64,000 nucleotides of DNA from Euglena gracilis (lineage: Eukaryota), in NCBI GenBank assembly GCA_039621445.1, contig CP154954.1, positions 29,521,411 to 29,585,410 of the forward strand, in the 5' to 3' direction. Numbering within the stretch: the first letter of the stretch is position 1; every line of letters starts with the position of its first letter. The position numbers were made by a program, and so were the translations under genes. A model generated the notes under the pieces. It saw nothing but the letters and a program-made list of their open reading frames with translations, was not told the origin of the DNA and ran no database searches. Of this stretch, positions 17,501-43,100 are shown piece after piece.

Positions 17501-17539
17501 GAATTCCCCCTCCCCAGGCACCAAGTGGGGCTGGTTTTG

Positions 17540-17995: not shown

Positions 17996-18986
17996 GGTTT
18001 TGGACGGAAGGTCCCTACACTGCGGTTCCAATTGCGATTACACTGTGATTTCCTTTGGACGTCCTTTTTTTGCATTTTCTTTCCAGAGGCTTGCAAATGC
18101 AATTAACCCCCCCCCCCAAATAATAACCCCCCCCCCCCCGGTTTATTATTTGGGCACCCAAAGTCGGGGTCCAGGGGGGTTTATTATTTGGGCAAAAAAT
18201 TCGAAGACAAAATTGACCCGAAAACCCCTCCACAGGCTCCAATGGTCACTTTTTTTGGCATTTTGGGGCTTTTTTTTGAAAATTGGGTGCTTTTTTGGCA
18301 GGGCTCCATCAAATTTTTTTCCAAAAGCGTTCAGAAAATTGGGGCATTTCTAGAGGAATTTTGCAGAATGCGTATACCAGAACTAACAAAAGAGCAATAG
18401 TCCGACATGTTAGGGATATGGTGACCAAACACTTCCCAACACCGCGGGATGGGTCTGGGTGGGGGGGAAGTGTTTGCCAGACAGGGCACTCCAGGGCACC
18501 GCGAGCCTGAAAGTGGTCCCCCAAATAAGACCTGACCCAAAATTTGGGCCAGGCCCCAAAAAGCGTCACTTTCCAGGTTTCCAAAAACACCCAAAATTTT
18601 TCATCTGTGCTCCACGCCATGTGTCAACATGTGTCATGTGTGTTATAAATTGAATTCACCCAGTGTTGTTGTGCTTCAAAAGTGTCAAATAATTGTTATC
18701 CAGGAAAAATTTTCATCTCCAGCGCTTTGCACCGTCAGTGGGAGTCTGGAATTGGCGGGGGGTTTTTTTTAGATTTTTTCTTTGTCGGCCCAGTGGGGGG
18801 GGGACTTCCTTTTGGGGAGGTCTTACAGTAATAATAGTGGGCATAATAGGACGCCTGAAAATTGGTGGGTCGAATCTAGGGCAGAACGGGAATCGGCCAA
18901 ACCGCCAGGGTGGTGGTGTGGGGGGGTGACTACCCCCCCCCCTGCATTGGCGGTGGGAGAAAGATCATACTGGGCGTGTATTTTTT

Positions 18987-20134
18987 CAGGGTTTCCCACT
19001 GATTCGTACACGAATAAGTACGAATACGTACAAATAAGTACGAATTGCCGAGGTCTGCCAAAATACGAATTAGTACGAATAAGTGCGAATGAAGAATTCC
19101 CCAGTTACGAATAAGTACGAATTGCCAAGTAGAAAAAGGTACCCCCCCCCCCTTTATTTGACCCCCCCCCCCTTAATTGAGCATTTGGGTCCGGGAAAAA
19201 AAATTTTTCATGCGCCGAAGGCGCCGAAAATTTTTTTTTGCCCTATTTCTAAAGGAATTTTTGACCCCCCCTTATTTGACCCCCCCCTTATTTGAGCATT
19301 TGGGGGGTCCGTTGGCCCGTGGGTGTGCTCAAATAAAGGGGGGGGGGGGTACATTTTTTTACACCATTGCACTGAGTTGAAGGTCCCCTCACACTTCTCT
19401 GTATGTGATGCACATCTTACGCTGCAGCATATCTTACGCTGCAGGACGCCTCATGTCCTCTTTTCCCTCAGAAAATGATTTTTAGGTTTGCCCATCAACA
19501 AGTTAGACCATCCATCCGTCAGGGGACTCATCCGAAAGTACACATCTGTACATGGCAGTGTGAAAGAGGGGAATAGTTTGCACCGGTCAGTGGTCAGAGT
19601 GTATACCACACACATTGCGAGCATAAGGAAATCTTTGAGCGGGAAGAAAGTGTGGCTCACAAAATTGAATTGCCCTGGTCTGAATGGTCTTTCAGTTTGG
19701 CAGGACTGATTGATGTCAAAACCGCCAACACATGTCATCTAACCTTCGGCAAGCAGCTGTTGGCATGTTTTGCAATGGTGACTGCGAAGAACGCTTTGCA
19801 CACCGTTAATCAATCCGCTCGTTTCATTTTGAGTATTTGTTCGTGCATGGCATGCTGGACAACATCAGTCGCAAAGAAGGAATGTGTTTTTCCTGTAATG
19901 TTTTGTATTTTTTTCTCACAGCGCGATTTTTTTTCACTTAGATAGTTTCTCAAGTGAATGACTTGTTTTCCTTGTTTTTCCCGGTTTCAGAACGTTGAAG
20001 ATGTGCCCAAGGAATATACATGGCCCTTTTTTGAAGTACGAATAAGTGCGAATAAGTACAAATAAGTACGAATAAGCACGAATAAGTACGAATGGGCAAG
20101 GGAGTCCCCAAGTACGAATCAGTGGGAAACCCTG
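18987..20134. mobile_element. Non-autonomous DNA transposon, 23-bp perfect TIRs, 7-bp TSD, with a nested TA-MITE (19142-19349)
   Basis: CAGGGTTTCCCACTGATTCGTAC / GTACGAATCAGTGGGAAACCCTG; atttttt on both sides; subterminal tacgaataag repeats; possible hAT remnant (LTDGWSN) on the minus strand. Confidence 0.82.
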
Positions 20135-22430: not shown

Positions 22431-22449
22431 CAATAATTTTGTTTTTCAG
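22431..22449 (+). promoter_or_regulatory. Probable spliced-leader trans-splice acceptor (pyrimidine tract + AG)
   Basis: caataattttgtttttcAG lies 8 nt upstream of the UGDH ATG. Euglenozoan mRNAs receive an SL at such sites. This is inference; it could instead be a 5'UTR cis-acceptor. Confidence 0.55.
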
Positions 22450-22457
22450 GGCACAAA

Positions 22458-25400
22458 ATGGCTGACTTCAAAGTGAAGATTTTGTGCATTGGCGCTGGGT
22501 ACGTTGGTGGTCCAACGATGGCAGTCATCGCTTTCAAATGTCCCTGACAGGGTTTCACATCCCAGCAAAGACAGGAGGAGACCGTGACTTGGGGGTTGGG
22601 TGAAGAAACCCCTGGTTTTGGTCTCGAGATGGGACCACTGCAAGTTCAGCCTCCCCGGATGGCCTGGCGAAGCTGGATTGAATATTTTTTGAAAAAAAGA
22701 GTGAGAATGGCATGGCAATTTGAGGGATTTCGGTTTTAAGCTTTCAGTTCCAAATTTTGGCGGAAAAATTCCAACCCACTGGATTCGGGCCCCGGGCGGA
22801 TATTGGCCATGCTTGCTCTGGAGGTTGGGCCGACCTAGGTCGGCACGGCCCAACCATGCTGTTATCGACCTCTGGAGGTCGACAGAAATGGCCACTGCAC
22901 CGCATTACCCCCCCCCCTTTTCAAAGAACTGGTCGGCCCGACCTGTTGCAGTTGCCGACCATATGGTCGGCCTGACCAATTGGAGGTCGGGCCGACCATA
23001 TGGTCGGTAGAAATGACCTCAATGGTTTTCCTTTTCAAAAGCATCCATCCAAACCCTTGGCCAAACCCCGGAACATAAGAAGGCCATTTTCGCATATACC
23101 CTCACCCCCCCTAATTGCCCCCCCCCCCCCCAATTGGCTAATTGAGGGTCCCGTTGGACGGTCCATTAGCCAATTTGGGGGGGGGTCGGGCTTATTGCCC
23201 ATTGGCCGGGGTTATCCCCCCCTAATTGTCCCCCCCCTAATTGGCTACCACTCCCCCCCTTATTTGACCCCCCCCCTTAATTGAGCATTTGGGTCCGGGG
23301 AGGAAATTTTTTTAGGCGCCGAAGGCGCCGAAAAAATTTTTTGCCCTCTCGCAAAGCCAAATTTTTGACCCCCCCCCTTATTTGAGCATTTGGGGGGTCC
23401 CTTAGCCCGTGGGTGTGCTCAAATAAGGGGGGGGTAATTGGGGGTCCGAAGGAGCCCGGCCATTAGCCAAATAGGGGGGGTGAGGGTACCCATAAGCTAG
23501 GGGGCATTGCAAAACAATTCCTGGTGGCGTTAACCCGTGGCCAAAAAGAATTTCTGACGTTATTTGAAGGGTTATATGAGTTGGGTTAGGGTTATGATTC
23601 TTATGCAAACAGCAGAACATTTCCTGCTCAACGTTGTTAGATTGGTCTCTACAAGGTTCCCAGCAATCCCAAAGAGCCGCCCAACTTGGGTTAAAAACAT
23701 GGGGGGACCTGAGCGAGGCGCCAGCAAGGGTCCCCCCATGTGCATTAACCCCAGTTGGGCGGCTCTTTGGGGTAGCTGGTACCGTGTAGGAGCCAATTTA
23801 TCCCGTTTCTGAACAGCCGGCTGCAGCCCTCAAAAATTTTCAGGCTTCAACAAGATGCACTTGCCAATCGAGCCCTGGATTCGGGCTTTCTTGCCTGTTT
23901 TCGAGGTGCCAGCCCGGTTCAGCTGCCAGTAGACCCCTTTTCCAGCCAGCACCTTTTTTCCCCTAGCGGTAACCCCCCCAGGGTCTTTAAGGAAACCCCT
24001 GGACTGAACCATTATTTCCAGAGTGGAAGTGTTGATTTTTGAGTCATTTTGGTCCCGGTGGCCAGAGACCGACCCTGGAGGGGTTGGGGAGTTGGGTGAT
24101 TGGTTTTCCAGATCCCCCCCCCCGGGGGGGTGTTGCTGAGCAACGGTATAATTCTGATTAAGGATGTCAAGAATAAACAACCTGTTTGTACCCGCCCCCC
24201 CCCCTTGTCCCCTTGTCCACCGACCACCCCTACATACCGACCACCCCCGGGCCGGGGGTTGCAGGTTGGGGGGGGGTGTACGACCACCCCCCGGTCGGGG
24301 GTTGCAGGTGACCACCAAAATGTTTTTACCTCTCATGTGCTTGTCGACCAGCTTTTTTCCCGTGTTTCCTGTCCATTGAGTGTTCCTCGTGTTCCCTCCG
24401 GGGAGTCCTGTTTTGTTTGAGCATAGCACCTCTGTTGTTGCTATGGTTATTGGTCCCTTACCTCATGGGGAGAAATATTACCGTTATGAAATTGCACCTT
24501 TTTTTGGCTTTTGGTTTTGTTTTGGCCCTAGTGGTACGACCACCCCCGGTCGGGGGTTGCAGGTTGGGGGGGGGTGTACGACCCCCCCCCCCCGGGGCGG
24601 GGGACGAAGGACCCCGGTCGTTGGACAAGGGGGGGGGGGGGGCGGGTACAACAAGGCAATGGTTTTGCCAAATAAAAGTTTCATGCATGCTTTTTTGTTG
24701 GTTTTGGGGGGTTAAACATGTTTCTCAGTCTGAAGTGTTTGTTTTGAACAACATCTTTGGCCCTGACCCCCAAGGGTGCATGGAGAGAGCCAGGGTGGTC
24801 TATACGGGACGGGATTTTTCTTTTTTTTCCTGTTCAGGACGGCCCTGAAGCCCTCAGGCCTAAGAGTCTGTCTGCCAAGGGCAGAACTGGGGGGCGTGAA
24901 CCGGGTCGGGAGGAGCCCAGGTAACCGCGGTGTAACCGCAGTGAGAACAAGAGCAAAGGTATCAGTATCAGTCCAATGCTTCATGACAAGGGGGTTGGAG
25001 GGGGGGGAAGCCCCCCCCCCCCAAATGAGACCCGGGATTTTTTGGGTCCGTTACTTGAAAACTGCAGGGGTTCTTATTTTTGGGGGATCTTATTTTTGGA
25101 TTTTTTTTTGACCAACCTGGACCCAAAGACATCATTTTCCAGGTTCCCAAAAAAACCAAAAGTATTCCTTCGACGCTTCGCGATACGCGTAAATTGGTTC
25201 AATTCATCTTTTAGCCTGTTTTTGGAACTCAAATATCCCAAATTGTTGACAGGTGGAATCCAAACCAAGATCATCGTGTGAATTGAAAGAGAATTTTGAC
25301 CTCCATTACCTTGCGGTTACACCGCGGTGTGACCGCGGTGCAACCGCGGTGATAACCGCGGTGTGGGCTCCTCCTCAAAAACAAAAAGGTCGAAACATGC

Positions 25401-28400
25401 ATTTTTCGACCTTTTGGGTGGATGGGCGATGGTCCAAGGATGCCGGAAATCACATTTTCTGCCGAATTCGAGCCGCTTTTGCCAAAATTTGGCTCTTTTT
25501 TGCCCATTCTTCCTCTGGGGTTTCATTGAATGTGCTGGGACAGCAGATTTATTTTATTCTTTTTATCTTCCCCCTGGCGAGAGCACAGGAGGTAACAGTT
25601 CCTCTCATCGGAAGCCCTGTGACAGATGTCAAGGTGACCATCCATGATATCAATCAGGCGCGGATTGATGCCTGGAACTCAGACCAACTTCCAATCTATG
25701 AACCGGGACTGGAGGAGATTGTAAAGCAGCAGCGTGGCAAGAACCTTTTCTTCACCACCAGCTTCGATGAGGAACTCCAAGAAGCGGATATTGTGTTTAT
25801 GTCTGTGAACACATTCAGGGAGTGGCATTAATGGGAGAAGAATGCTGGAATGATTGTGAAAGAAGTGTGACTAAACCCCCCCCCCCCGATGGTGGAGGGT
25901 GATGTGGGCTTTTTGGGAATCCCCCCACAAGTCACACGGAGAGTCGGCAGGGGGGGTTGGGGTGGTGTACATGCCACTGGGACGGTGTTGCCAACAGGTA
26001 AATGCCGCTGTGTAAACCCTGTCAGGTGCATGTGCATGATGGTGTGTGTGGCAAACCCCGAACTGCCCCAAGAGAACGCTGGAACAAAGAACAACTGAAC
26101 AGTGTTTTTTCCAGTCTGGCCGAATACAGACAAGCTGTGGGCAACCACATTTTGGTGAAAAGACTCCGATGGGTGGTGGTGGTATTGCAATTTTCTCTCT
26201 CGGTAGGGTCAAGGGTAAGCTTCTGTAAAGGCCCCAAAAATTAAAAAAAATTGCAAAAAAATTGTAAAGAAAATGGTGGCCTGGATGAGATAATGATTCA
26301 AAAAAGAACCTGGATTCTGGGATGGAAAGCCGCAAAATATTATGGTGTGGGACAGTGGGATCTGCCTACAAGCCTCAGGTAACCAAAAGTCAGGATTACA
26401 TTTTCTGGGACCGAAGAAATCACATACCCCCTTCCCCCCCTTGTCCAAGACACAGCGTGTCGTTGACACCCCCCCCCTGTCAACGACTCTTTTCTGGAGC
26501 ACATTTTTTCTCTTGTATTTTTTTTAAAGGATATTCAGCCAAGTCATTTGAAAATTGTGTCACATCTCCTTGCCATTTCTTTATTTGTTTTCCCCTATGA
26601 ATTTGGTGATTTGGTGCAATATGAGGGGTCAAATGGTGCAATTTGTGGAGGACATGGTCATTGGGCCATCAAAAAGTTCGTTGTCATTGTCCGCGCTGTT
26701 GACAGAGCTTGTCGTTGACATCCCCCCATGTCAACAGCACTTTCCTGGTGCGTGCCTTGGCCAAGGGGAGGGGAGGTGGGTACCTTGTGAAAATGGCCGA
26801 AGGCCATGCCGCAGGCAACAGCCCTTCATTGAAGAGAGCACCATCAGAGACCATGGCAGATTAACGGTCCCCCACTAGGGCGCCAATTTTTGCAATGGGT
26901 CGAAAATTAAGCAGCAGTCAAAAAACGCATTTTCTCAGACCACAATCTCAGAACACAAGAGAAAGTTGGTCGATTTTGGGGAGCAATTTCAGGCATACTT
27001 GGACCCCCATCCAAGTCTGGTAATTCTTCATTCAATTCAACCTTGCATTTGGGGGGGGTTGCGATATTTTGCGAGATATTGCACCGTCTTGCGATATTGG
27101 CGATATTTTCGATATTTGCGATGTTATTGCTGATACCGCGATATATTGCGGTTATTTTTTTAAGCCCCCCCCCCCCCCGGGAAAATGTTAGTCACAACCT
27201 TGGCCAGCGGAATTCAGCCTTTCGCCATTCACCCTAATAGAGAACCCTCCAAAACAGTAAGTGCCCTCGGTTACTAGAATTTCCAGTGCCTCATTGGTGA
27301 CACCCCAAGATTCCTCTTCAATGGGATCCACCACAATGTCATCTTCATCGTCAGAGTCAACTAAAATCTGTTGACAGTACAAAAAGAACGGTGCAAAATT
27401 TGTCAAATACCCTGCGGGGGGGGGGGTCTGAGGGCAACCGCGCGGGCGGTGTTCGGCCCAAAGGGGGGGTTGGGGTTGCGGGGGGGGGGGGGGGCGGGTG
27501 AGGAACGGGGTTTGCGTCATGCGTGACTTGTGTGACGTCATTCTTTCCTCTAATTTTAAAACCCAATCAGGAATTTGCGTGCCATTTGGGTCCAAAAATA
27601 GGTCCAATTGGGAATTTGGGACAAATTATTCATACTTTTGATTCCTAACTGAGTGGCAAATTCCTAGTTAATCCGAATTTTTTGTACTTTTTTTGAATCC
27701 AGAATTGGGTTCAGAGTGGGGTCGGGGGGGGGGTCGCGGAGGAAACGCCCAAAATAGGGCCTTGCCCCATCCACCCATCCAGGTGCGCCGACCCCGCCCC
27801 CGACATTTTGAGGAGAGGGTGAGGAGGAGACACATGGGTGCAACCTCATGGAAACCTCTGGACTGATTATGCATATTATGCACTGAACAAACACTGTTAT
27901 GCACTGTTTTCTTCAAATTTAAGGTTTAATTTCTTTAAATTAAGGTTCACCTTTTTTTCATTTTAAATTGTAGCTTTGGTACAAACATTGAAATTTCATT
28001 TCACACCGCTCATGGAGGTGGTCACCCCTGCATGTTCCTCCAACAACTGTGGGCAAACCAAATCCCAAAAAAAAATGAAAAAAATGGCATATGAACCAGA
28101 GAAAAGAAAAAGCACAAAAACCGAAAAAAAATCAAAAATTAAAATCAATATTCATGCATACAATCTTGGGCATTGGTGAAATTTGTGCAGCAGAAAGTTG
28201 GTGGATTCCTGCCAGGCTTCTTTTTGTTTCGGAAAGTTGCACCCCCCGGGGGGTTGTGGGCCGGCAGGAGGGTAGGGCACCTTCAACCCCCCCCCCCCCG
28301 GGAGCCGGTTTCGGGGTGGGTAGTGCTAAAATGGCCGTTTTCAAGGGAAATTTGCCTGTGTCAGCAGGCACCACATGCCGAAACCGACCCCCCCCCTGGG

Positions 28401-31400
28401 GTGGGGGGGGTGCTGCTGTGGACAGCAGGCACCATAGCACACGGCACCCCCCCCCCCCGGGGTTGGTAGAAAGAAGCCTGATCCCTGCTCACACCCACCA
28501 AGTTGCATGGGATTGGCAAAGGGCGAGCAGCAGATCTGAAGTACATTGAAGGTGCTGCCCGTCGTATTGCAACGATCAAGGATGGTTCAGCCACACAGTG
28601 TGGCGACCTGGAATTGATCCTGGTCTGAAGTGGATCCATTTTTTAAACAAGCAAGTGACCAAATTTGCACACCCTCTTTGCATGAAACCCTGGGGGTCTA
28701 CATTGTCCAAATATTTACTGGCCCCCAACGATTTTGTTGACCTTCCAGCTTTTCAAAAAAAACATGTTTTTTGAACCTTGAAAAAGAAAAGTGTAAAATG
28801 TCGTGTTTTTGAAAAACTTCTTTTTGCTTTTTTTTTTTAAAGAAGAAGCCAAAATGTGGCACGCAGCTTCGCTTGTCCAACCTCCCCCCCCCCAGGGAAA
28901 TTGCCCTCCCTGGGAAACTGTTATTTAAACCCCGTACTCGCCAAACTGTCACCGAATTTTTTCCCAGAAATTTTGACGCTTTCTCACGGAAGGTGAAAGA
29001 TTGAGTGGACCTCATGCATAGAATTTGACCACGGAAATTTGAAGGGAAATCGCATCTTTTGGACTTCTGGGTCAGTGGGGGATTTAAAAAATTCTCCTTT
29101 TTACTTCTGACCTCCCCCGTGAAACTGTTACTTACCTCCGTATTTGCTGACAGTTTCCCGGGGGGATAGATGCCCAAGAGGTTATTATTGGGTTATTTTT
29201 TTCCTCCAGTGCTTTGCAGAGAGTATTTTAGACATATTTTGCACAGCATTGCCCCAAGCCACACGTTTGACCAATTGGGGCAGGGGATTCTTTCCCCTGT
29301 TACGTACAGCGTGGTACGCTATATGCCTGACAAAATCAGTAACTCCTTTCAAGAGGGGAGGCAAGCTTGGAAGGACACCAGGGGTTTTTTTTAGTTGTGG
29401 ACCCCCGGGGGGGGGGGGGGGGGGGGTGTCCGGCCGAGCCCCCAGGGGGGGATATACTTTTTGGCGCCAAAGGCGCCAAACATATTTGAAAAGGTGCTAT
29501 TTTTAGCACTTTTTGCGATTTTTGGCCATTTTTTGTGGGTCCCCCAGGACCCCCCAGGGGGTGGGTGGGTGGGGGGGGACCCCCCCCCCCGGTCTTAAAT
29601 AAATCCCCTGAAGGACACCCCTCTCTGCGGGAGGGGGTTGGGTGGGTGGGGGCCATACCATTGCCAAGGGTGTGCTCCCCCCCCACCGGCCGGGGGGTGA
29701 CTGACTGGTTTTTTCGGAGTGACTGGCTAGTTTTTGGCTCCTGTGGGGGGAGGTCTGTGCATAACGGAAATCGGCCGAACAGCAAGGGTGGTGGGTGGGT
29801 GGGGTCGACCACCCCCACCCCCGACAACCTGCATGGCGGGTGAGGGGGGGGGGGGCGCCCCCCCCCCACCACCTCTTCCCGTATTTCCGGGAGCACCAAT
29901 TTTTGGACCGGAAAAAAATTTTCCGGCGCCGGGTGTTTTTTTTTTATCCATTTTGGGACCCATATAGGAGGTCCCCACCCAAAAACCACCCAAACCCCCA
30001 TTTTTTCACACCTTCCAAAAATTCAACATTTTCTGAAAATGTTGATTTTGAGAGGTTTTTGAAGCAAAAAATGCCATTGAAAGGTCAAAAAATTTCAACG
30101 AGAAAAAATGTCAGTAAAATTTGACTGTGCCAAAATTTTGTCCACTTTTTTTGACCTTCGTTTTTTTCACCCCCCTCCTAAAAACTACCAATTTTTAACC
30201 TTAAATTTTTGAGATTTTTTGTGAAAAAAAATGTGGTTTTCCATCATAAAAATCATATGTTTTGGGTTCATTTTTCAAAAAAAAATCAAAAATCTTCCCG
30301 TCCAATATCCCCGTTTTCCTGAAATCGGTGAAAATGCTGTGGTGGGTGGGGGGGTCGACCCCCCCCCCCACCAGGCCTTCCCATTCTGCCCTGCGGTGGT
30401 TGGCCAGGATTGGCCGACGTGGCCACCTGGCGCCAAAGGCGCCGGAAATTTCTTTTTTGACCAAAAATGTTTTGATTTTTGGCCAATTTTGGCCGAGTAG
30501 CCAAAGTGACCAACCCCCTTCCCCAGGAAGGAGGTGGGAAGTGGGTGACTGGTTTTTGAAAAGTGACAGATTGGTTTTTTGAAAGTGGACCAGGGCGGGG
30601 GGTCGGTAAACAATGGTATGGTCCGGTCCCTTTTGTGGGGGGGGTGTCCCTGCGGAAGCTTGGGCATAGGTTCCAGAGAGAAGCACCAGAAAAATGTGGG
30701 CAAGGCGGTCCCCTGCTGGGCTGGGTGGGGGGTCTTTAAAAGAAGCCGGGAGAGCAGTGCAAGTGGTCAGCAATCCATGGCCCCTCCGAAGGGAGGATTT
30801 TTATGCAGAAAAAATCCTCCTTGCAAGGACTGTGAAGTCTGGCAACAAGGTGGTTGTGGAGAAGTCCACGGTGCCTGTTCGCTGCAGCGTTGCCATTGAG
30901 CGAGTCTTGAAGGCATGCAGTGCTGATCAGGGTTTGACGTAAGGAGGTCGACCGCGCACCGTTTTGAACAATAGCCTTTTGTAACGATCCCCCCACTTTG
31001 CGCCTATTGCATGCAAGAAGCTCTGGGAGTGTGGAAGCTGAGTCACATGAAAATGAAATGCGAGCGGATGGACTGCTTCTAAGCAGAGGAGGGCACCATA
31101 AGGAACCTCCATGACTTTTCTTTTGATGATTGCCTCAAAAAACCCCTATCTGCGATCCACATAGGTGCGTGCTCCACTCTGGCAACGACCCTCTCTGATT
31201 CAACCCCCCCCCCATTCCTGACGACCCACAACGACCCATTGTTGTAATCATTGGTTATACTCTTTTCACATGTTTTGGGCATTAGAAATGCTCTCCACTT
31301 TCCTTGATCGCCCCTCTTTCCCAAATCATGTGTCAAGTCCAACAAAAATCACGAATATTGAGAACCAAACCTGGATTTTGAAAGCAGGTTGGCAAATTTA

Positions 31401-34400
31401 GCAGCACATCACTCCAGAATTAGGATTATGAAAATTATGGCAAAGAAGCATCTGGAAATTTTCTGGGTGTTTTACCAAAACACCCAGAAAATTTGTTTGT
31501 TGTAATTTGTTGCCCTACACCCAGGGAGTTGAGTTACCCCCATCCATTGGCCATGGGTTTGCTCCATTGTGTCACTGTTGTGTGCCGCTGATGGGGTGTT
31601 TGACTCCCAAATTATGTTCTTGTCGATCCCTGGTGCTGACACCTCTGCCACATTTGAAGTACTGTCAAACCCAGAACACACCAGTACTCCCATTTTTTTT
31701 CGCCACCATTTTTCACCGGTCATCCGTTTCTCAAAAGTTGGTTCATGACAATACTGGTCCATTTTTTATCCCACCGAGGGATGCCTTGTCAGAGTCAACA
31801 CACCACATCGGTGTCATCAGTCTGAGTGCTGACGTGCTGGCGAGTTTCTTGCCGAGGGGACAGCCATTGAGGATCTTCTGAAACCCGACCGTGTGTTGAT
31901 CAGGCATTATTTTGCATATATCTTTTACGTATGCTATATAATATACATATATATATATATATCATGTATTATATATGCTTATTTTAGGGTCAAATTTTTT
32001 CCAACACTTTTAGGCATTCTAAGGAATTTTAAGGCACAATTTTCCAGGGTGGTCCATGGGCGATCCGGGCATCGAACCAACGTTTTTGATTTCGCACGTG
32101 GTCCAAAATCAAGGAAAGTCGAAAAACGCAGTTTTTGAGTTTTGGTTGGATAGACAATGTTTCAGCGATGCCAGAGATCATTTTTCATCCCGAAGTCGGC
32201 CTGTTTTTGCCGAGATTTTGCGTTTCATTTTTGCTTGGTCGGAGAAGATTCTGCTGGTCTCATTTCTTAAGGCGTTTTAACGCATTTTAAGGCATTCTGG
32301 CCAAAATTTAAGGTGTATATTTAAAGTATTTTAAGGTTTTTTTTCAAGGCACCTTTAATGATGATAATAATTATAATAATGCCTGGCGCTGATCGGTGGG
32401 TCTCAAACACCCAGCGGGCAGAAGGCCTGTGAGCTTCTCTGCTCTGTCTATGCACGATGGGTGCCGCACAGCTGATTTTGGTTGCACATAGTTTCATTTC
32501 AACTTCCATTTCCATCCATTGATGGTTTCCAGTTTGTGTGTTTCTTTGAGCCCAGGTCCCCTTTTTTGTGTTGGTTTTTGGACAGCTCATTGTGAATCCT
32601 TGTTTATTTTTGCCTTTTTAACAGCTCCCAAAAATCCTAAAAAACCAAATATATATATTTTTCCTGGACACCCAACATGTTTAAACAAAAAAAAAATCTT
32701 GTGATGGATGTTTGCACTGCTCAAAAAACGAAAGGTTTTTTTTTGAGAAATTGCATGAACATATTTTCTGCATTTCAACACGTTTTCAACAAAAATCCTC
32801 CAAGGCGGATGATAATTGGGTAAAGGTTTTCAAAAAGTTAACTCCAAATGTTGAATGGTTCTGTTTTTTAATTCTTTTTTCTGTTAATCTTTTTGTCAAC
32901 CTTGTTTTGCTCAATTTTGGAGAAGATTGGAACAAAATGAGTATGATTTTTGAAGAAAAAAAGACAATTCTCAGAGACATTTTAAATGGACACAAGAGGA
33001 CAACTTTTTGCAAGGATGCTTTTGCTGTCTGCAGTGTAATTACGCGGGAAAAATTTCTGCCCGGTGCTTCGTGCTCTTGCTGGAAAGGCGGTAATTCGGA
33101 CCCTCCACAAAAACAGTGGGGGCAATGCCTGGAGGGGGGGGGGGTTCCCCCCAGTGCCTGCCATTATATCAAACCCGGGAGGGGAGCTCCGTTCGTGGTG
33201 GCACACCCTGCTGCAGCCCTGCCCAGGGATAGTTGGGAAGCCCTTTGGTTTTGAGGTAGGTGGTTGGGGGGTTTGGACCCCCCCCGTTGTTGGAGGGGTG
33301 TTCAGCATGGTTCAAAAAATAGCTGTTTTCCTTCCGGCACTGCACTGGAAAGTGAATAATTTTCACCTTCTTCCTCACTTTTGAGCATATTGCCCACCCA
33401 TTTTGGGATGTTTTGATGTCTTCCACATAAAAAAACGGTCAAAAAGTATTTTTTGGGGGTTTGGTCTATTTTCAAATGGAATCAGGGATTTTCCAACAAT
33501 TTTGGACTGGTATCCGTACTTTTGCCCGTCCACAAACTGAAAAAAAAATTGGTCCTATTTCAGTGACGAGGTTGGAGGGAGGGAGTCCGACCCCCCCCCC
33601 CGCCCCTCAAGGCCTCCCATGTCCCTGGCCCTGCCCCTGACAATCTGATGATGATGGCCGGGATTTTTCATTTTGCAATTCTGGTCCTGAGTGGGCGCGC
33701 CAGTCCCCCTCCCCCCAAGGTCAGCTGCCTCTGCGGGAGCGGATCCTGACCACCAACCAGTGGTCCAGCGAGCTCAGCAAGCTCACCGCCAACGCGTTTC
33801 TGGCGCAGCGCATCTCCTCCATCAACTCCATCTCCGCCGTCTGCGAGGCCACTGGGGCGGACATCGACGAGGTCGCGTTCGCCATCGGCCGGGACTCTCG
33901 CATTGGCCCCAACCGGGCCGATACTGTCGATACAACACAACACAACACAAGGCAACTCAACCCAAAACACCACACCACACCACACCACACCACATTACAA
34001 CACAGCACAGCACAGCACACACACCTGTCCAAGTGGGTTGAAGCCAATTTCCCTGGTAGGTAGGGCCATTCGTTGGGGATTGCCAAGGTTGCCAGCGTTG
34101 CCCAGGTTGGGGCAATGCTGGCCTTTGTATCGGGCAGTGGTGGCCCTATGGGAGTTGGTGAAAAAACACCTCTCCCTCCAGCGGTGTGCAGGTTTTTTTT
34201 GTTCAAACCGCGCCGTCGTTTTGTTGGTTTGTGTTGCACAAAAAAGGGCGTTCACACCAGAGTTGCAACACATTTGCCACAGGAGACAGGATTACCCAAC
34301 AAATTAAAATTTTAAAAGCTCCGGGGTTTACTTCTTAAAAAAGTGACGGGCCCACCCCAAAATCCCAGTGACTGCTGTCTGAAACGTTGTCATGGACAGG

Positions 34401-37400
34401 CACCCAGAAGCCAGAAACCCCGGATCTTAACACAGGACCTGCCTGGCCGGAAGTTTCTCAAGGCGTCCGTTGGATTCGGTGGCTCCTGCTTTCAGAAGGA
34501 CATCCTGAACCTGGTCTACCTATCCAATTCTTTGGGGCTGCACGAGGTGGGGGATTATTGGTACAGCGTGGTGACCACCCCTTCGCTGAGACATTTTTTT
34601 CACTGCACTGGCAATTGCCAGGAATTCCTTCGCCAGCCAGATCCTCCAACAACATGGCCGTCAACAATTCTAGAAAATTGAATTTTCTTCTTCCCATCAG
34701 GCTTTTCTTTTTAAGTGAGGTGCCGACCCCACGGGGGGGGGGGGGGGTGCTGGGGCAGGCACCAGGCTTGTGCTTAGTCGGGTGCCAACCCCACGGGGGG
34801 GGGGGCGGGGGGCAGGCACCCCATAGCCCCCGAGCCCCCCCCCCCGGGGGGGGGGGGTAGGGTTTTGGGGGGTGCCTGCCCCTAGCAGGCACCCCCCTCC
34901 GACCCCGGCGCCTTCGGTGCCGGGGGCCCGGAAAAGGCCATTTTCAATGAAAATTTTCTGGGTCCCCCCCCCCTGGACCCCTCTCCCCCCCGGGCGGGGG
35001 CCGCCTGCTAGGGGCAGGCACGCTATAGCACCCCCCCTCCCCCCCCCCGGTTGGTAAGCACAAGCATGGCAGGCACCAAATAGCACCCATAGGGGGGTCC
35101 CCCCTCCGACCCCAGCGCCGAAGGCATCGGGGGCCCGGAAAAGGCCATTTTCAATGAAAATTTTCTGGGTCCCCCCCCCGCACCCCACCCTATAGCACCC
35201 CCCCCCTCCCTCTGGTCGGTAAGAAATAGTCTGCTTCCCATTTTTCAACCTTTTTCCCCACAGCACAAAGTTGTCCAGGAGTTTTGAGCCTTTTTGAAAC
35301 GGATCGAAAGTGCACCGAGTTCCACTTCCTGTTTCAGCGCAGGAGTGGAAGCAGCGATGAATGACTATCAACGCCGGCGCTTTGTGGAGATGATCGTGCG
35401 GACCATGTTTGACACAGTGACCAACAAGAAGATTGCAGTGTTGGGCTTTGCCTTCAAGAAGGACACGGGCGATACGCGGGAGAGCTCCGCCATTCCAGTG
35501 TGCAGCTCGCTCCTGGATGACGGAGCACTGGTCCACTGCTACGCCCAGGGACACGGTGCCAAGTTGTGTCACCACCTGTTTTTTTTGTTATTCCGAAGAT
35601 GCTTTTTAAACCCCCCCCCTGCCCACCAACCCCCCTGTATACTGACCACCCCTGGTCGGGATTGCAGGTCAGGGGGTGCGTGCGACACCCACCCCCTGGC
35701 CAGGGGTTTGGGTTACCTAAAAAAAAAAAGCTTTACAGAAGCAGGGGTTTTGGCACTTTGGTTGTATGACCATCCCCCAGCAGGAGATTGCAGATATGGG
35801 GGTGTGCCACGGTCGGTCGGTAAGGGGCTGGTGGCAGGTTGCAAATTCTGCAAAAATTCGGCACCTTCGCTGACAGGTCGTTTCCTCTGGGGGATATTCT
35901 TTGTCATTGGACCTGTCAGTGGACCCGGGGGGGGGGGGGGCTCCAGTTGGCCAGCACCCTTTTCCCAGACCATCTCATCAACAAGTTTTATTTGTTTTCC
36001 AGGGACTTCGATTTTTTGATTCCACCCCAGCCGAACCCAGTTCCAACCGGGGGACCCCAAGGGGGTCAACCGGTAGCCTTTTCCAACCGGCGTGGGAACT
36101 CTTTTGCTCATTGGAAGCAAAAACACGAGGACAAAAAAAATCTGGCTCCGGCGATTCTCTGACTCACTTTTGTATATTTTGGCCCATTTTGCACCTCCAA
36201 AAGCAAAAAAAACTACGTTCCGAGAGGAAAAATTTTATTGGGGGTTGGGGCAAAAAAAAAGAATCTTTTTTTGGGGGACTGGGGGAGGGCAGAGACTGCC
36301 AAAATTGTTTTTCCCTGTTGTTTCCTTTTCTTGTTGGAGGTGTGGGGATGAAAAAAATAAAATGAAATTCTTCCTCTTTTTGGGCATTGGTGTAGGGGTG
36401 GGGAGGAGTGTGGGGAGTGCAGGGGGGGGGGTGTTGGCGGTCAACCTGCCAAAGAATTTTTTTTCTTTTTCAGATGTAGCTCGCATTCAATATTGGTTAC
36501 CTGTGAGGAGGCTCTGCAGAGCCTCCGCGGAGGCACCCAGGCAACCAGCCTCTGCTGAGGCTCAGGTAACCAGCCTCAGAGATTTGGGTAACCAAAAGTC
36601 AGGATTCCACACAGGGGTTTTTTTAGTCGTGGACCCCCGGGGGGGGAGGGGGGGTAGGGTGGGTGGGTCCAGCCCCGGGGGGGGGGGGTCCCCCTGGAGG
36701 GGGGTGGGATTTCCTTTTCGGCGCCGAAGGTGCCGAAATTTTTTGAAAAGGTGCTATTTTTAGCACTTCTCGCGATTTTTCGGCCATTTTTTTGTGGGTC
36801 CCCCGGGACCCCCCCCCCCCCCCCCGGCCCGGGGGGCGCCCCCAGGGGGGTGGGGACCCCGCCCTCGGTCTTAAAAATCCCCTGATTCCACACTTGCACG
36901 GGCCCCTGCTGGCCCCCCCCTCTTTGGCTGAATTGACGCCCTAATTGCAATAGAGTCCCTGACCCTATTCCTTCAATTAACCACAAATACATTTGATTTT
37001 GGGACTTTTTGTTCATACAATCACAATTTTGATGCAATACAAACTTTGGCCAAAGGTGGTTCTGAAACCTAAACATAGAGGTCGCATGGGCCCACCAAAG
37101 GGTCGGGCCGACCTCTGGATGAAAATCTTTTAAAGGGGGGGGTGATGCAATGGCTTGGCCATGGTTGACCATGGCAGGAAGCCCCCCCCCCCCCGATAGA
37201 AGCGCGGGGCTGCTACAAGCGCAGGGTAAATAAAGGACAATCCAAATCCAAATACACTCACCGCTGCCGAAGGTGGCGGTCCACTACAAACACACCCCCA
37301 TTTGATGAGATTTTGAAAGGAGATCAACAAAAATTGCAGCCAGGGTCCAAATAGAAGCGCACCTAGGCTTCCATTGGGGGATGGGTTTATCCTAGTTGAG

Positions 37401-39993
37401 TGACTCTTGGACCCTGTTGGCCAATCAAACAACGCTTCAACTGCTGCATTGGAATCAGGGCGTCGCTTGATGACCCCCTCCCCCCCGGAGTCCAGCTCAG
37501 AGGCTGGAAAACTTGGACTGGCTGGAAATAGGCTGCTGGCTGACCTCTAAGGGTACTGGAATTGGGTCCATCCTGGGGTCGAACCAGGTGCAAGAAAAAA
37601 TCGAAACTGCAAAAAAGCCCCAGAAGCTGCTAATTACGCAAACAATTGATCTTTTCGACCCCAAAAATTTGCCCTGGCCCCAGGTAACCCCTGGGTTCCC
37701 CCGGAGGTGAGCCGGCCCAAAGCCAACCCATTTTTTTGCCAATTTTTGGCCCACTTTTGAATCAGGATTTTTTTTAAGTCAGAAGATCCGGGTGGGTGGG
37801 TGGGTGGGTCCTGGACCCCCCCCCCCCACCCGGGTCCCGGGCAGGAGACATGGGTATGGGTTTCAGCGCAAAGCGCCGAAAGTTTTTTTCTTAGGGAAAT
37901 GGCCTCAGACGTGTCTGGGGTCCCCCCCCCCCCGCGTCCCACGCCAAGCGGGGTCTTAAAAAGAAGCCTGCCCACCCTGGTTCAAGGCATTTTAAGACTT
38001 TCAAGGCATTTTGGCCCAAAAATTTAAGGCACATTTTAAGGCATTTTAACGTTTTTAAAGACACCTCAAAAAATGATGATGCCTGGTTATGGGCAGGGCA
38101 GGCAACCATAGCACAATGCACCCCCCCAGGTTGGTGAAAATAAAAGCTGCCCCAAGGTTTCCCATACGACCACAAGCCAGGTAAGGCGGTTACCCTTGAC
38201 GTTCCCAACTGGAGTCCTTACCTCTGGGCTACACGAGCCTTGGCACCTATCCCTGCCATGACCCTAAGGTCACTGAGGAGCAAATGCTTCAAGACCTGAA
38301 CGAGGTGGCAGAGGGCAACCAGCACCTGCTGAACCAAATAAAGTCTAATTACCGGATTGAGAAGTCGGCCGTGGAGGCGTGTAAGAATGCCCACGCCATT
38401 GTGGTGTTGGCGAGGGAAGTGCAAATCGCCACCTCACCACCACTGATCAGTTGTTTTTTTGTGTCAGATTTGTTGGGCTTGGGGGCCATGATGTCGGCCC
38501 AAACAAACAGCTCCCACGGTTGATTGTGACCCCGATTGAAGATTGTCCCTGGAAATTTGACTCTCTCTCTGTTCAGCTTTCGCAGAGTCCGCACCAGGAC
38601 GGCGCTGAACCCTCTCACCCGGACGGTTGAACTTCCCTACCGAAGACCGAATGGGACGAGTTCAAGACGCTGGATTACCAGCAGATCTTCAAGGAGATGA
38701 CGAAGCCCGCCTTCCTGTTTGATGGGCGTGGGTACCTGGACCTGAAGGTCAGGCCATTGCTCCGGGTGGGGGATACGATGAACGTCCCTTCTGTGTCCAG
38801 ACCGCATGGTAATACCTCCCCGGCGGCAACTGTCACCCCCTCAACTTTTGGCAACTTGCCAATGGCAAAAAAAAATGCACCAAAGATGGAGTCTTTGGAA
38901 GTTTTTGTTGTTGATCAATCTCTGGATGTACGCATGAACTCGGGATTTGAATGCTCAAGAATGTGCTTGAAGGGATCAAAAGTGTTTTCAAGAGATCGGA
39001 AATTTACAGAGATCGGAAAGTTACTGATTATTCGTCTACCCCAGCGGGCAAATGTCACCCCCTCTGCCCGCCTTTTTGCCGTCCCCCAATTTTTCAGCCC
39101 CCCCCCCCACATCTGCTGGCTAAATTGTTGTGTGACAATTGCTGGGGGGGGGCAAGGTTCAATATACGGAGGGTGTGCGGGGTTTAGGTGGGGTGGGGTG
39201 CCTCCCCTCCTGGAACAGGGGGCCGGACCATGCCATTGCTTAACACCTGTCCAACTACCCCCCCCCCCCCCCCCGGGTGACTGATTGGTTTTTTCAGAGG
39301 GAACTGACTGGTTTTCTGGCCAAGACCCCCCGGGGGGGGGGCAGGCCTGAAAATGAAAAGTGGCTGGCCTGGCACCAAATTTTTTTGGATTTTTTGAGAT
39401 TTCTTGGCAAATGTTCATTGCATATTCAAGAGTGCCCCCCCCCCCCGCCCGGGGGGTAAAGTGACTGACTGGTTTTTCGGAAAAAGTGACTGACTGGTTT
39501 TTTCAGAGTGGAAAGTGACCCCCCGGGTCGCCAAGTAATGGTATGGGTCGGACACCCTCCCCCTGCCAAGGGAGGGGTTCCAGACCAACCCTCCCCCCAA
39601 AAAATCAAAAAACATAGTTTAATTTTCCTTCTGACACTTTTCACTTTGCGCTGGAAAATTTTGACAAATTTCGCCCCAAAAAGTGTCCAAAATGACATGT
39701 TTGCCATTTGGGGTTAATTTTTTTTGGGCCGCCGCTTCGCGCTGGCCGAAAACAGTCAGCCGGACTGCGCCACTGTTTAGGTGGGGGGGCACCCCACCTC
39801 CCCCCTCCTGCACCGGAGGGGAGGTCCGACCCCCCCCCCCGCCTTTATATCAAACCCTGGGGGGGGGGGGCAGCCCTCTCCAGAAGTTTCCCGCACGGCT
39901 GCGTGGAGAAGCCGCGGCCTGGAGCCGGCCCTGCGGGAAATCGGCTTTGATGTCTTTTCCATCGGCCGGACAAAGGCCCAGCGGTACAATTGA
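22458..39993 (+). CDS. UGDH: UDP-glucose 6-dehydrogenase, complete copy 2 (13 exons, 475 aa)
   Basis: Manual join: 22458-22544, 25625-25812, 28493-28573, 30828-30924, 31638-31676, 31845-31897, 32391-32465, 33733-33910, 34451-34572, 35353-35542, 38260-38408, 38645-38746, 39927-39993 = 1428 nt, open throughout. The translation has the UGDH hallmarks [11 protein letters not shown] (Rossmann), [86 protein letters not shown] (catalytic Cys), [30 protein letters not shown] and KPAFLFDGR. Confidence 0.96.
22545..25624 (+). other. Nonconventional intron 1 of UGDH copy 2
   Basis: tgaCAGGGTTTC...GAAGCCCTGtgaca. CAG at +4, CTG at -8, 9-bp terminal stem with one G-U pair. Removal joins FKCP to DVKV. Confidence 0.88.
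28574..30827 (+). other. Nonconventional intron 3 of UGDH copy 2 (copy 1: 5880-8140)
   Basis: gatCAAGGA...TCCTTGcaag; 7 nt outside the stem; joins ARRIA-T-TVKSG. Junction ambiguous by 1 nt. Confidence 0.82.
30925..31637 (+). other. Nonconventional intron 4 of UGDH copy 2 (copy 1: 8238-8949)
   Basis: gatCAGGGTTTGAC...GTCGATCCCTGgtgct; the stem is flanked by gtgctgat and gtgctgac. Confidence 0.88.
31898..32390 (+). other. Nonconventional intron 6 of UGDH copy 2 (copy 1: 9210-9702)
   Basis: gatCAGGCATTAT...ATAATGCCTGgcgct; perfect 10-bp stem; joins DRVL to IGGSQ. Confidence 0.9.
34573..35352 (+). other. Nonconventional intron 9 of UGDH copy 2 (copy 1: 11888-12669)
   Basis: gacCACCCCTTCGCTGAGACA...TGTTTCAGCGCAGGAGTGgaagc; 18-nt imperfect stem with CAC/GTG in place of CAG/CTG. 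Confidence 0.88.
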
Positions 39994-40105
39994 GCACTAT
40001 CTTTATCCATCTGCCCCTGATGGTGTCCGCTCATTCCGACGTCCCCTCTCACCGGACTGCCCCTCTCAGATGGGGAAGGCTGCATGTGTGTGGGTGTGGG
40101 TGGGT

Positions 40106-40140
<35 letters not shown>

Positions 40141-43100
40141 TGTCACAACAGAAATGTACTGCTCCTGAGAATTCCCCCTCCCCAGGCACCAAGTGGGGCT
40201 GGTTTTGCAGGAGGGGGAAATTGATATCCGCAATTTTTCTGCAATTTCCGCAATTTTTCCGCAATTTGTCCCCAATTTTTTTTGCATTTTTTTCGCAGAA
40301 TTTTTTTCCCACCACCGAAGATGGAAGATGCAATGAGTTCAAGCCATTCTTCAAATGGATCAACAGGTGTGCTATTGTGTTTTGTTCCCCCCCCCAGTTT
40401 ACCAATTTTTCTCACAGGTGCACCACTGGTCACAGGATTGGGTGCGTCCTACCTGTGCAAGAACTTCAAGCGTGTTGATTTGTGCTCGCCCACATCGACG
40501 TGGGTGTTGTGGTGTTCTGAACCTCACAATTGAAAAATTTCTAGTCCCCTCAAGCAGAAATGTGTATATTCCAGATATCAATTTTCCGCAAGTTTTCCGC
40601 AATTTTCCACAGTTTTTCCGCAATTTTTCCCGAAGGCCTCCGATATCAATTCCCCCCCCCCTGGGTTTTGGACGGAAGGTCCCTACACTGCGGTTCCAAT
40701 TGCGATTACACTGTGATTTCCTTTGGACGTCCTTTTTTTGCATTTTCTTTCCAGAGGCTTGCAAATGCAATTAACCCCCCCCCCAAATAATAACCCCCCC
40801 GGTTTATTATTTGGGCACCCAAAGTCGGGGTCCAGGGGGGTTTATTATTTGGGCAAAAAATTCGAAGACAAAATTGACCCGAAAACCCCTCCACAGGCTC
40901 CAATGGTCACTTTTTTTGGCATTTTGGGGCTTTTTTTTGAAAATTGGGTGCTTTTTTGGCAGGGCTCCATCAAATTTTTTTCCAAAAGCGTTCAGAAAAT
41001 TGGGGCATTTCTAGAGGAATTTTGCAGAATGCGTATACCAGAACTAACAAAAGAGCAATAGTCCGACATGTTAGGGATATGGTGACCAAACACTTCCCAA
41101 CACCGCGGGATGGGTCTGGGTGGGGGGGAAGTGTTTGCCAGACAGGGCACTCCAGGGCACCGCGAGCCTGAAAGTGGTCCCCCAAATAAGACCTGACCCA
41201 AAATTTGGGCCAGGCCCCAAAAAGCGTCACTTTCCAGGTTTCCAAAAACACCCAAAATTTTTCATCTGTGCTCCACGCCATGTGTCAACATGTGTCATGT
41301 GTGTTATAAATTGAATTCACCCAGTGTTGTTGTGCTTCAAAAGTGTCAAATAATTGTTATCCAGGAAAAATTTTCATCTCCAGCGCTTTGCACCGTCAGT
41401 GGGAGTCTGGAATTGGCGGGGGGTTTTTTTTAGATTTTTTCTTTGTCGGCCCAGTGGGGGGGGGACTTCCTTTTGGGGAGGTCTTACAGTAATAATAGTG
41501 GGCATAATAGGACGCCTGAAAATTGGTGGGTCGAATCTAGGGCAGAACGGGAATCGGCCAAACCGCCAGGGTGGTGGTGTGGGGGGGGGTCGACTACCCC
41601 CCCCCCCCTGCATTGGCGGTGGTGATGGTGTGCACACACCATCAGGGGGACCCTGGACCCCCCCCCCCCCGGGCTGGTGGCCAGGCCGGACGAAGGGGTA
41701 AAGGGCACCAAAAAGGCAGCCACAGTGCACACAGGGGGCTGGCTGGTGGCTGTTTTCCCGTGTCCAGCAAAATGGCTAGCCAGTGGACCCCTGCCTCCCG
41801 GGGCTTAAGCAATGGCCTGACCAGATGGTCGCCCCCGGCCGGGGGCTTAAGCAATGGTCGGCATATAGGGGTGGTCGGTGGACAAGAGGACAGGGTGGGT
41901 ACCTCCCCTTTGCCCCCTAACCCCCAGTTGGGGGTTGTAGATCAGGGGGTGTGTATGACCGCCCCCCGTGGTCGGGGTTGTAGGTGACCTTTGGAAAACA
42001 GGGGTTTTTTCAGGTCAGGGGGTGTGGTATCCCCCCCCCCCGTCGGGGGTTTTGGGAACCCAGTCGATGAGCAAAAGCACCTCGAGACTGACATTGACCC
42101 GGAAATTTTTGGTTTTGAGGACGGGCAAACACTCAGAACGCTGGTTCAGGTTGCCGCCCGAACCGGCGTTCTGGACACAGTGTTTGCATCGAAGTCAGGG
42201 TCAAGATAAAATCTTTACCCTGACCCTACTCCTGAAATAGCCCAAATTTTTGTCTGTTATCTCACGGCAGACTCTCCCCCCAAACCCCTTGGGCCCGGAA
42301 GGGAATAGCCCCTTCTGAGGGCTTTGAGCGGATTCTGGGGTGACCATCCTGGGGGGTCGGGCTGACTTTGGGATGGGACACAGACCTCTGGGGGTCGCTT
42401 CAAAAATGCCTGATTTTGCTTTAAAAATGAAACAGAATGCTCATTTTTTGAATTTTTTTGAACGCTCCTCATGCGGAAAACACCAAACCATTAAAAAAAT
42501 GGGCAATATGCTCAAAAATGAGGGAGGAAGTTGTTTTTTTTTGTTCATTTTCCGGCGCTGCGGGAAAAAATTGCCATTTTTGAAACCTGCCGAGGAGGGT
42601 CCGGATACACCCCAACATCCAGGGGGGGGGAGGGTCGGCAACCCCCCACCGCCTGATTCGATACCGACGGGCTTCCCATCAATCCCTGTGGAGGTTTGGT
42701 TCTACATAAGGAGGGTATCACCCCTTCCTGACTGCCAGACCCCGCTGTGGCCGGACCCCACCCCAAGGTCAAGTTTTATTTGGGCGACTTGCACCGAAAT
42801 AATTTTGGAAATTTTCGGAAGTTTGCCCAAGGTGCCCAAAACGGCATCTGGGTTGATTTTGGGGTTTCGGAAAAATTTTTGGCCAAAAGTTGGTCATCTT
42901 GGATGCATGTCTGTTTGTTTGAACCAGGGCAGGGCTGTGCGGGAATACCCGCAACCCTATGGGTGGTGGGTGGGGGGGGGTCGACCAGTCCCCCTTCCTG
43001 GTGGTTGGGGAGGGGCCGACCCCCCCCCCCACCAGGCTTTCCTGTATATCCAGGGGCGCTGATTTTTTGGTTGAAATTGTCCTTCGGCGCCGAAGGCATA

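Follow-up and report, generated by a model that had tools for sequence, protein, structure and literature searches.

What kind of introns interrupt the gene for UDP-glucose 6-dehydrogenase (UGDH) in Euglena gracilis, and by what signal could they be removed? The question is raised by a 64,000-nt stretch of contig CP154954.1 (assembly GCA_039621445.1; the whole stretch is hereafter called the window), in which a preliminary description had placed a conserved housekeeping gene with 12 of 12 introns lacking GT-AG ends. We conclude, with a probability of about 0.9, that window 22458-39993 on the forward strand is a nuclear UGDH gene in which at least introns 1-10 are nonconventional, intron 12 is probably nonconventional too, and intron 11 is a GC-AG or an intermediate intron. 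The tally is ten introns shown to be nonconventional, one predicted to be so (intron 12) and one of ambiguous type (intron 11).

The gene and its transcript-supported junctions

Two euglenid proteins from a database search (P0006 and P0003) were placed onto the window with tblastn. The resulting map of the gene, which is the downstream one of two copies (copy B), runs from the ATG at 22458 to the TGA at 39991-39993 and comprises 13 exons, separated by 12 introns that measure 168-3080 nt. The joined exons (1428 nt) form a single open frame of 475 aa, as compared with 454-474 aa in the euglenid relatives that their sources name UDP-glucose 6-dehydrogenase. The exon-bearing open reading frames (ORFs) match PF03721, PF00984 and PF03720 in order (best E-values 4.6e-18, 1e-15 and 6.8e-09), and the NAD-binding N-terminal, central and C-terminal UDP-binding domains run in this order over the exons, as expected of the family. 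The product has GGSCFQKD at residue 276, which we take to be the catalytic-cysteine motif, and the GAGYVGG encoded in exon 1 is presumably the NAD-binding motif. The housekeeping UGDH gene with 12 introns that had been proposed is thus confirmed, and each of the twelve intron-end strings listed for it was found at its junction. None of the titles and abstracts found for UDP-glucose dehydrogenase together with Euglena concerned the gene described here.

The closest protein to the product is P0003 (source name EG_transcript_14324), which equals residues 21-440 of the spliced product at 419/420 positions, spans junctions 1-11 and ends before junction 12. Ebenezer et al. 2019 used names of this form for their transcriptome of E. 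gracilis (PMC6366073), and the match marks the window as belonging to E. gracilis or a strain very near it. For each of junctions 1-11, every donor/acceptor pair that reproduces the sequence of P0003 was enumerated, giving 48 registers. None of the 48 is GT-AG, so that the use of nearby GT-AG sites, the outcome named beforehand as contrary to the claim, does not appear in P0003; and within introns 1-10, 0/46 registers are GT-AG or GC-AG. At the protein level, this supports precise removal across junctions 1-11 and shows introns 1-10, ten of the twelve, to be nonconventional.

Further sequences were sought around these junctions. A search with the species-specific exon 11 for an E. gracilis protein covering junction 12 returned only P0003 among 11 candidates, and an exact 29-nt pattern from exon 13 had 0 matches in metagenome contigs. 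A search with P0003 for related metagenome loci gave 80 loci of 59-65% identity, 79 of them with a span of contiguous-coding length and one (L053) of about 1.6 kb; judged from the table of matches alone they are of bacterial type, and they were set aside as of no use for euglenid introns. Separately, 18 sequencing runs, none of them recorded as RNA but either guessed to be so or of unknown kind, contain 0.23-0.29 of the sequence words of window 33734-35542, a fraction near the exon share there (489/1809); these runs were not counted as evidence.

A T-rich run ending in CAG (window 22440-22457) lies 8 nt 5' of the UGDH start codon. It resembles a spliced-leader (SL) trans-splice acceptor, the 3' end of an outron, and may be one; as a T-rich sequence it is unlike the C-rich type reported for E. 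gracilis.

Terminal helices and the published code

The rarity implied in the preliminary description is not supported. Nonconventional introns make up 16151 of 28337 introns (57%) in E. gracilis, beside 11527 GT-AG and 659 GC-AG introns (Gao et al. 2024, PMC11170887), and in E. agilis they account for 71.8% of 649158 introns, the share in E. gracilis being given as comparable (Nomura et al. 2025, PMC12501133). On the assumption that intron types are independent, all twelve introns of a gene would be nonconventional with a probability of 0.0012 at a share of 57% and 0.019 at 71.8%, and at least 11 of the twelve with a probability of 0.012 and 0.11, respectively; among tens of thousands of genes, 12/12 is not remarkable. 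The phenomenon is already known, and the UGDH gene is a clean but ordinary example of the commonest intron type in Euglena. It carries little weight as a discovery, since the class is the majority one and its cis code has been dissected by genome editing.

That cis signal, 5'-N3CDG-/-CH'GN5-6^R (^, border between intron and downstream exon), was defined genetically by EgGSL2 knock-in (PMC12501133). The same paper reports that the 5' spacer of 3 nt is strict, that the 3' spacer tolerates +1 and that -1 leaves about 20% of the transcript, that the helix after CAG is required for splicing, that 61.2% of the nonconventional introns of E. agilis carry the code, and that 84.4% of introns can slide. 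The changes described in its Results text are single CAG/CTG substitutions and second-position swaps, and no compensated first- or third-position changes are reported there. The consensus given for E. gracilis is CCAGG at +3..+7 and CCTG at -9..-6 (PMC11170887).

Seven of the UGDH introns (1, 2, 4, 6, 7, 8 and 12; 7/12, 58%) carry the published code in one of the registers open to them. Random pseudo-introns allowed an equal number of registers do so in 1252 of 240000 cases (0.5%), which gives a binomial P of about 8e-14 for 7/12. CAG/CTG or CGG/CTG stands exactly at +4..+6 / -8..-6 in 7/12 introns, the CGG-CTG of intron 8 being of a type tested as spliceable in PMC12501133, and CAC/GTG stands there in introns 5 and 9. 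CAA/TTG (intron 3) and CAG/CTG (intron 10) sit one nucleotide nearer the 3' end, and in the GAG/CTA of intron 11 the outer pair is broken by a G-A mismatch. The third motif pair of introns 3, 5 and 9 is Watson-Crick with other letters. The helix closes at +4/-6 in ten introns and at +4/-5 in two, and a contiguous helix starting exactly at +4/-6 measures 5-13 bp in seven introns; in introns 5 and 9 its length is 3 bp. The earlier classification as euglenid nonconventional introns is right: terminal stems are present, and the CAG/CTG-type pairing falls at +4..+6 / -8..-6. The 6-18 nt of end-to-end complementarity noted with it is roughly right, the contiguous helix at the motif being 5-13 bp and longer when interruptions are allowed.

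Folding the joined 30-nt intron ends, which had been suggested as a check, gave a signal at the level of the set. The twelve end-to-end duplexes have a mean energy of -20.4 kcal/mol (range -10.9 to -31.8), compared with -11.9 kcal/mol (standard deviation 5.7) for the 30-nt ends of 2400 random pseudo-introns of matching lengths from the same window, and a mean of twelve random values reached that observed in 2 of 100000 resamplings. The energies of introns 9, 10, 11 and 12 fall within the best 0.5-3% of random pairs. The window is rich in runs of G and C, which let random ends fold fairly well. The position of the helix is a sharper test than the duplex energy. In introns 5, 6 and 11 the terminal helix is also present in the minimum free energy (MFE) and centroid folds of the full-length intron. 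A scan of the whole window with Rfam gave no match at gathering scores.

The junctions follow the same pattern. The upstream exon ends with a pyrimidine in 10/12 cases, the intron starts with a purine in 11/12 and ends with a pyrimidine in 8/12, the downstream exon begins with a purine in 12/12, and 10/12 junctions can slide without a change in the mRNA. Compared with the nonconventional introns described for Euglena (PMC12501133, PMC11170887, Milanowski et al. 2014, 2016), the UGDH introns are alike in their CAG/CTG-type pairing, 3-nt and 5-nt spacers and downstream-exon purine, and also in the terminal helix, the slidable junctions and the direct repeats. The shares are close to those reported genome-wide for E. 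agilis in PMC12501133 (code 7/12 versus 61.2%, sliding 10/12 versus 84.4%). We see no difference in kind, and five UGDH introns belong with the roughly 39% outside the strict code.

Intron 5 has an alternative helix, CCAGTAC/GTGCTGG, which is shifted by 4 nt, has a long 5' spacer and is preferred by the full-length fold. The 3' end of this intron (31824-31841) holds a tandem 8-nt duplication, GTGCTGAC GTGCTGGC, which offers the 5' end two pairing partners, so that the helix register is ambiguous.

Several observations weigh against the conclusion drawn above. The junctions rest on one transcriptome-derived protein, with the evidence at the level of protein, and P0003 differs from both gene copies at one residue (R versus K) and could stem from another strain, allele or locus. 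Junction 12 lies beyond the end of P0003, and two other readings exist there (AA..AG, and a GT-AG reading that adds one residue). The strict code fails in 5/12 introns (3, 5, 9, 10 and 11); intron 11 bears CTA together with a GC-AG register, and a change of CTG to CTA abolished splicing in the knock-in assay (PMC12501133). The stems of introns 2, 3, 5 and 8 are weak when each is judged alone: 21-51% of random pairs fold as well. No pairing was seen between the exon flanks (cognate -3.6 versus non-cognate -3.7 kcal/mol). Finally, the cleavage chemistry, the circles and the order of removal are all taken from papers on other genes.

Table 1. Exons and introns of the UGDH gene (copy B) in window coordinates; ^ marks the border between intron and downstream exon.
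Feature	Window position	Strand	Length (nt)	Remarks
Exon 1	22458..22544	+	87	start codon 22458; tblastn P0006 + P0003
Intron 1	22545..25624	+	3080	nonconventional; TGA-CAG...CTG-TGACA^G; within code; 9-bp anchored helix
Exon 2	25625..25812	+	188	
Intron 2	25813..28492	+	2680	nonconventional; ATT-CAG...CTG-CTCAC^A; within code; junction slides over 5 positions, same mRNA
Exon 3	28493..28573	+	81	
Intron 3	28574..30827	+	2254	variant; GAT-CAA...TTG-CAAG^G; third pair A-T; spacers 3+4; outside strict code; 6-bp helix CAAGGA/TCCTTG
Exon 4	30828..30924	+	97	
Intron 4	30925..31637	+	713	nonconventional; GAT-CAG...CTG-GTGCT^G; within code; junction direct repeat 7/8 nt; slides over 8 positions
Exon 5	31638..31673	+	36	
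Intron 5	31674..31841	+	168	variant; GAA-CAC...GTG-CTGGC^G; spacers 3+5, then internal loop and 8-bp helix; outside strict code
Exon 6	31842..31897	+	56	
Intron 6	31898..32390	+	493	nonconventional; GAT-CAG...CTG-GCGCT^G; within code; 11-bp helix, retained in full-length fold
Exon 7	32391..32465	+	75	
Intron 7	32466..33732	+	1267	nonconventional; GCA-CAG...CTG-CCTCT^G; within code; 13-bp helix including 2 G-U pairs
Exon 8	33733..33910	+	178	central domain begins
Intron 8	33911..34450	+	540	nonconventional; AAC-CGG...CTG-GCCGG^A; within code
Exon 9	34451..34572	+	122	carries GGSCFQKD
Intron 9	34573..35352	+	780	variant; GAC-CAC...GTG-GAAGC^A; spacers 3+5; third pair flipped to C-G; outside strict code; long interrupted helix, -27.4 kcal/mol
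Exon 10	35353..35542	+	190	UDP-binding domain begins
Intron 10	35543..38259	+	2717	nonconventional; GCC-CAG...CTG-CCAT^G; spacers 3+4; outside strict code on spacing alone; 6-bp and 9-bp helices, -31.8 kcal/mol
Exon 11	38260..38408	+	149	
Intron 11	38409..38644	+	236	ambiguous type; GGC-GAG...CTA-CCGAA^G; outer motif pair broken; 8-bp helix AGGGAAGT/ACTTCCCT
Exon 12	38645..38746	+	102	3' end predicted
Intron 12	38747..39926	+	1180	probably nonconventional; GGT-CAG...CTG-GAGCC^G; within code
Exon 13	39927..39993	+	67	including TGA stop 39991-39993

The types of introns 11 and 12

The alternative that survives best is a mixed gene, in which intron 11 is a spliceosomal GC-AG intron, intron 12 is possibly a GT-AG intron, both splicing systems are needed, and the nonconventional introns number 10 or 11 of 12. 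We give it a chance just short of even. When intron 11 is slid by 1 nt, a GC-AG register (38410-38645) appears that yields the identical mRNA and has G at +5, the sole prominent 5' position of the GC-AG introns of E. gracilis (PMC11170887), which number 659 of 28337 introns there. Both genome-wide papers class GT/GC-AG introns as conventional (PMC12501133, PMC11170887). The mismatched outer pair of GAG/CTA points the same way, as CTG-to-CTA is the change that blocked splicing in the knock-in assay and that Nomura et al. used to make a retained intron (PMC12501133). Against a purely spliceosomal intron 11, its ends form a perfect terminal helix of 8 bp, which lies as far from the two junctions as is usual and survives the full-length fold, and the pyrimidine content before its 3' end (12/20, 7 of them C) is like that of the other 11 introns and not above their range (7-14 in the last 20 nt, with no tract evident). 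The pyrimidine tract was rejected as a discriminator for intron 11, as it shows no difference from the other introns.

We therefore give about even odds to intron 11 being conventional (GC-AG) or being 'intermediate' as Canaday and Milanowski use the word. With the intermediate introns (Canaday 2001, as described in PMC4770533) it shares the GC-AG borders and a stable helix joining the ends, and intron 12 resembles them in that it can start with GT. Whether the 'intermediate' introns form a real class is doubted in Milanowski 2016 (PMC4770533).

Intron 12 can be read in three ways, all of them in frame. The code-compliant reading (38746/39927) gives DL-KA-LREIGF; the AA..AG reading (38744/39925) gives a product resembling that of a relative, P0008; and the GT-AG reading (38747/39925, with GT at 38748 and AG ending at 39924), the pair that would make intron 12 conventional in a mixed gene, gives one residue more. 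The spacing from DGR to IGF is 10 residues in 108 of the 108 homologues with a findable motif (120 examined), and it fits the code-compliant and AA..AG readings but not the GT-AG reading, which makes it 11. In addition, the 3' end of intron 12 is purine-rich (pyrimidines 7/20), and the intron conforms completely to the nonconventional code. Because the 3-nt rule at the 5' end is strict, the code-compliant reading is favoured. We regard it as clearly the most probable of the three, with AA..AG a distant second, GT-AG a little behind that and a small remainder for something else; intron 12 is thus probably nonconventional. The claim that 12 of 12 introns lack GT-AG ends holds for introns 1-10, which have no GT-AG or GC-AG register, and falls short for intron 11, with its GC-AG register, and for intron 12, where the type is predicted and an in-frame GT-AG alternative exists.

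Removal, origin and the tandem copy

In the nonconventional introns of the UGDH gene, the trinucleotide at +4..+6 (CAG, CGG, CAC or CAA) pairs with a complementary one that lies 5 nt, or in two introns 4 nt, before the 3' end; the pair opens a helix of 5-13 bp that brings both junctions together, and the downstream exon starts with a purine. If these introns behave as published for other Euglena introns, a separate machinery would read the helix as a ruler, cutting 3 nt upstream of it at the 5' end and, at the 3' end, 5 nt (in some cases 4 or 6) downstream of it. The exons would be joined and the intron freed as a full-length circle, and this removal would follow spliceosomal steps such as SL trans-splicing and the removal of any conventional intron. 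Excised tubA introns are described as full-length circles, a finding attributed to Gumińska 2021 (PMC12501133, PMC11282704), and conventional introns are reported to be removed before nonconventional ones (PMC6221363); circular excision, the order of removal and the lack of U1 pairing are known from tubA and gapC (PMC12501133, PMC11282704, PMC6221363). The earlier remark that the splicing machinery is unidentified agrees with PMC12501133 and PMC11282704, where the trans-acting factors are still unidentified. On our analysis, we put removal independent of the spliceosome at somewhat better than even.

A helix whose distance sets the cuts, and the release of a circle, are also found in tRNA bulge-helix-bulge introns and in HAC1/XBP1, which work like the Euglena introns. 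The likeness is one of working only: in the UGDH introns the exon flanks form no second helix, and we do not count these introns among such systems. A tRNA-like bulge-helix-bulge was rejected here because cognate exon flanks pair no better than non-cognate ones.

What the machinery reads may be a closing helix set at a constant distance from the cuts instead of the letters CAG/CTG, in which case the published code would be its commonest spelling and intron 11 could use both pathways. We put this forward tentatively, and think it less probable than its opposite. It is suggested by the four introns outside the code (3, 5, 9 and 10) that are removed precisely at the protein level in P0003; of these, introns 5 and 9 (C-G) and 3 (A-T) keep the third pair, and introns 3 and 10 use spacers of 3+4. 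If it is true, the joint presence in intron 11 of GC-AG borders, a helix and a 'dead' CTA could mean that it is truly open to either pathway. In this respect the locus is a compact natural test set. Seven of its introns comply with the code, four are exceptions with transcript support (through compensated pairs at the third position and spacers of 3+4), and one has both GC-AG and a helix, with a motif equal to a variant that failed to splice in experiment; all lie in one expressed gene and in two near-identical tandem copies.

We consider it unlikely that all twelve introns are removed by a modified or second spliceosome tolerating non-GT-AG ends, as in some tunicates, with the helix only bringing the sites together. 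Independence from the spliceosome is indeed described as presumed and still needing experimental verification in PMC11170887, 'a nonconventional, additional spliceosome' is among the options in PMC11282704, and in the UGDH gene the intron start is a purine in 11/12 cases and some registers of introns 4, 6 and 12 start with GT. What speaks against such a spliceosome is the strict 3-nt ruler from cut to helix and the requirement for the helix (PMC12501133), the excised introns reported as full-length circles and not lariats (PMC12501133, PMC11282704), the later departure of nonconventional introns compared with conventional ones (PMC6221363) and the rarity of hybrid introns, 0.8% (PMC12501133); in the UGDH introns themselves, a pyrimidine tract is not evident.

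As to origin, the 8-mers at the two junctions of each intron match at 48/96 positions, as compared with about 35 when the pairs are non-cognate; 48 was reached in 46 of 20000 permutations. Such direct repeats fit an origin by insertion of an inverted-repeat element resembling a miniature transposable element with inverted repeats (MITE) or by double-strand-break repair, both already proposed (PMC12501133, PMC11282704, PMC4770533), and the UGDH introns likely arose in one of these ways. They are like the introner or MITE-like introns of Micromonas, dinoflagellates and tunicates (PMC11282704) in having terminal inverted repeats and junction direct repeats. The introner or MITE-like introns, however, are removed by the spliceosome, with a splice site made in the target-site duplication (PMC11282704), whereas in the UGDH introns no GT-AG is created and the helix is the signal. 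The UGDH introns also lack a common internal sequence: self-BLAST of 18957-64000 showed no repeat family common to all introns, and introns 3 and 10 share one repeat (29445-29555 / 36701-36814; 114 nt, 87% identical). Another repeat, of about 200 nt and 82% identity, is common to the spacer between the gene copies and intron 1 (19140-19345 / 23246-23434).

The second UGDH copy lies in tandem upstream. Window 1-18956 aligns to 22705-41622 with 98.85% identity (19000 columns, 92 mismatches, 69 gap openings), and the upstream copy, interrupted by the same introns, has its exons 2-13 at 2922-17296, exon 1 being beyond the left edge of the window. The intron ends are identical in both copies, and exons 2-12 have 0 differences in 1327 nt. 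When the introns of 22705-39979 are compared with those of the upstream copy, substitutions number 1 in the 2268 nt that lie within 100 nt of an intron end versus 89 in 13680 interior nt (Fisher P = 2.6e-5). The differences are unevenly spread: introns 4, 5, 6, 8 and 11 have no substitutions, and intron 4 has one indel. Given the approximately 15-fold fewer differences in the end 100 nt, the functional intron ends may reach well past the stems of 6-12 bp. The gradient can also come in part from gene conversion or from assembly noise in low-complexity interiors.

That the locus is a silent duplicate or a tandem-repeat assembly artefact, with the transcript coming from another copy whose introns might differ, is suggested by the two tandem copies of 98.85% identity and by the one residue at which P0003 departs from both, but is very improbable given that copy B has an intact frame over 475 aa and a normal C-terminus, that exons 2-12 are identical while intron interiors differ, a pattern that constraint or conversion leaves in a gene that works, and that strains can vary by one conservative difference per 420 residues. 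In the upstream copy, 7 additional bases occur within the final approximately 20 nt of exon 13 (17290-17400 versus 39975-39993), so that its frame does not end in ...KAQRYN* but continues without a stop for at least approximately 30 codons; this copy may be decaying, may have a genuine variant C-terminus or may reflect a fault of the assembly.

For annotation, the UGDH gene is a reminder that GT-AG-based gene finders break such genes. The expectation that standard tools miss these introns is in line with PMC11170887, in which the default settings of Exonerate are reported to be inadequate for them.

Around the gene pair, a (GT)n microsatellite lies about 115 nt 3' of the stop codon of the downstream copy (40108-40137) and recurs at the corresponding point behind the upstream copy (17444-17469), one copy having 13 repeats and the other 15. 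Tandem repeats with a period of 18/100 nt occupy 45916-46386, with a period of 20-51 nt 46523-46767, and with a period of about 161 nt 50382-52105. Further downstream, two ORFs on the reverse strand, 54622-58449 (1276 aa) and 62918-64000 (361 aa, running off the window), match the reverse transcriptase family PF00078 (E 3.8e-10 and 4.4e-13) and are probably retroelements.

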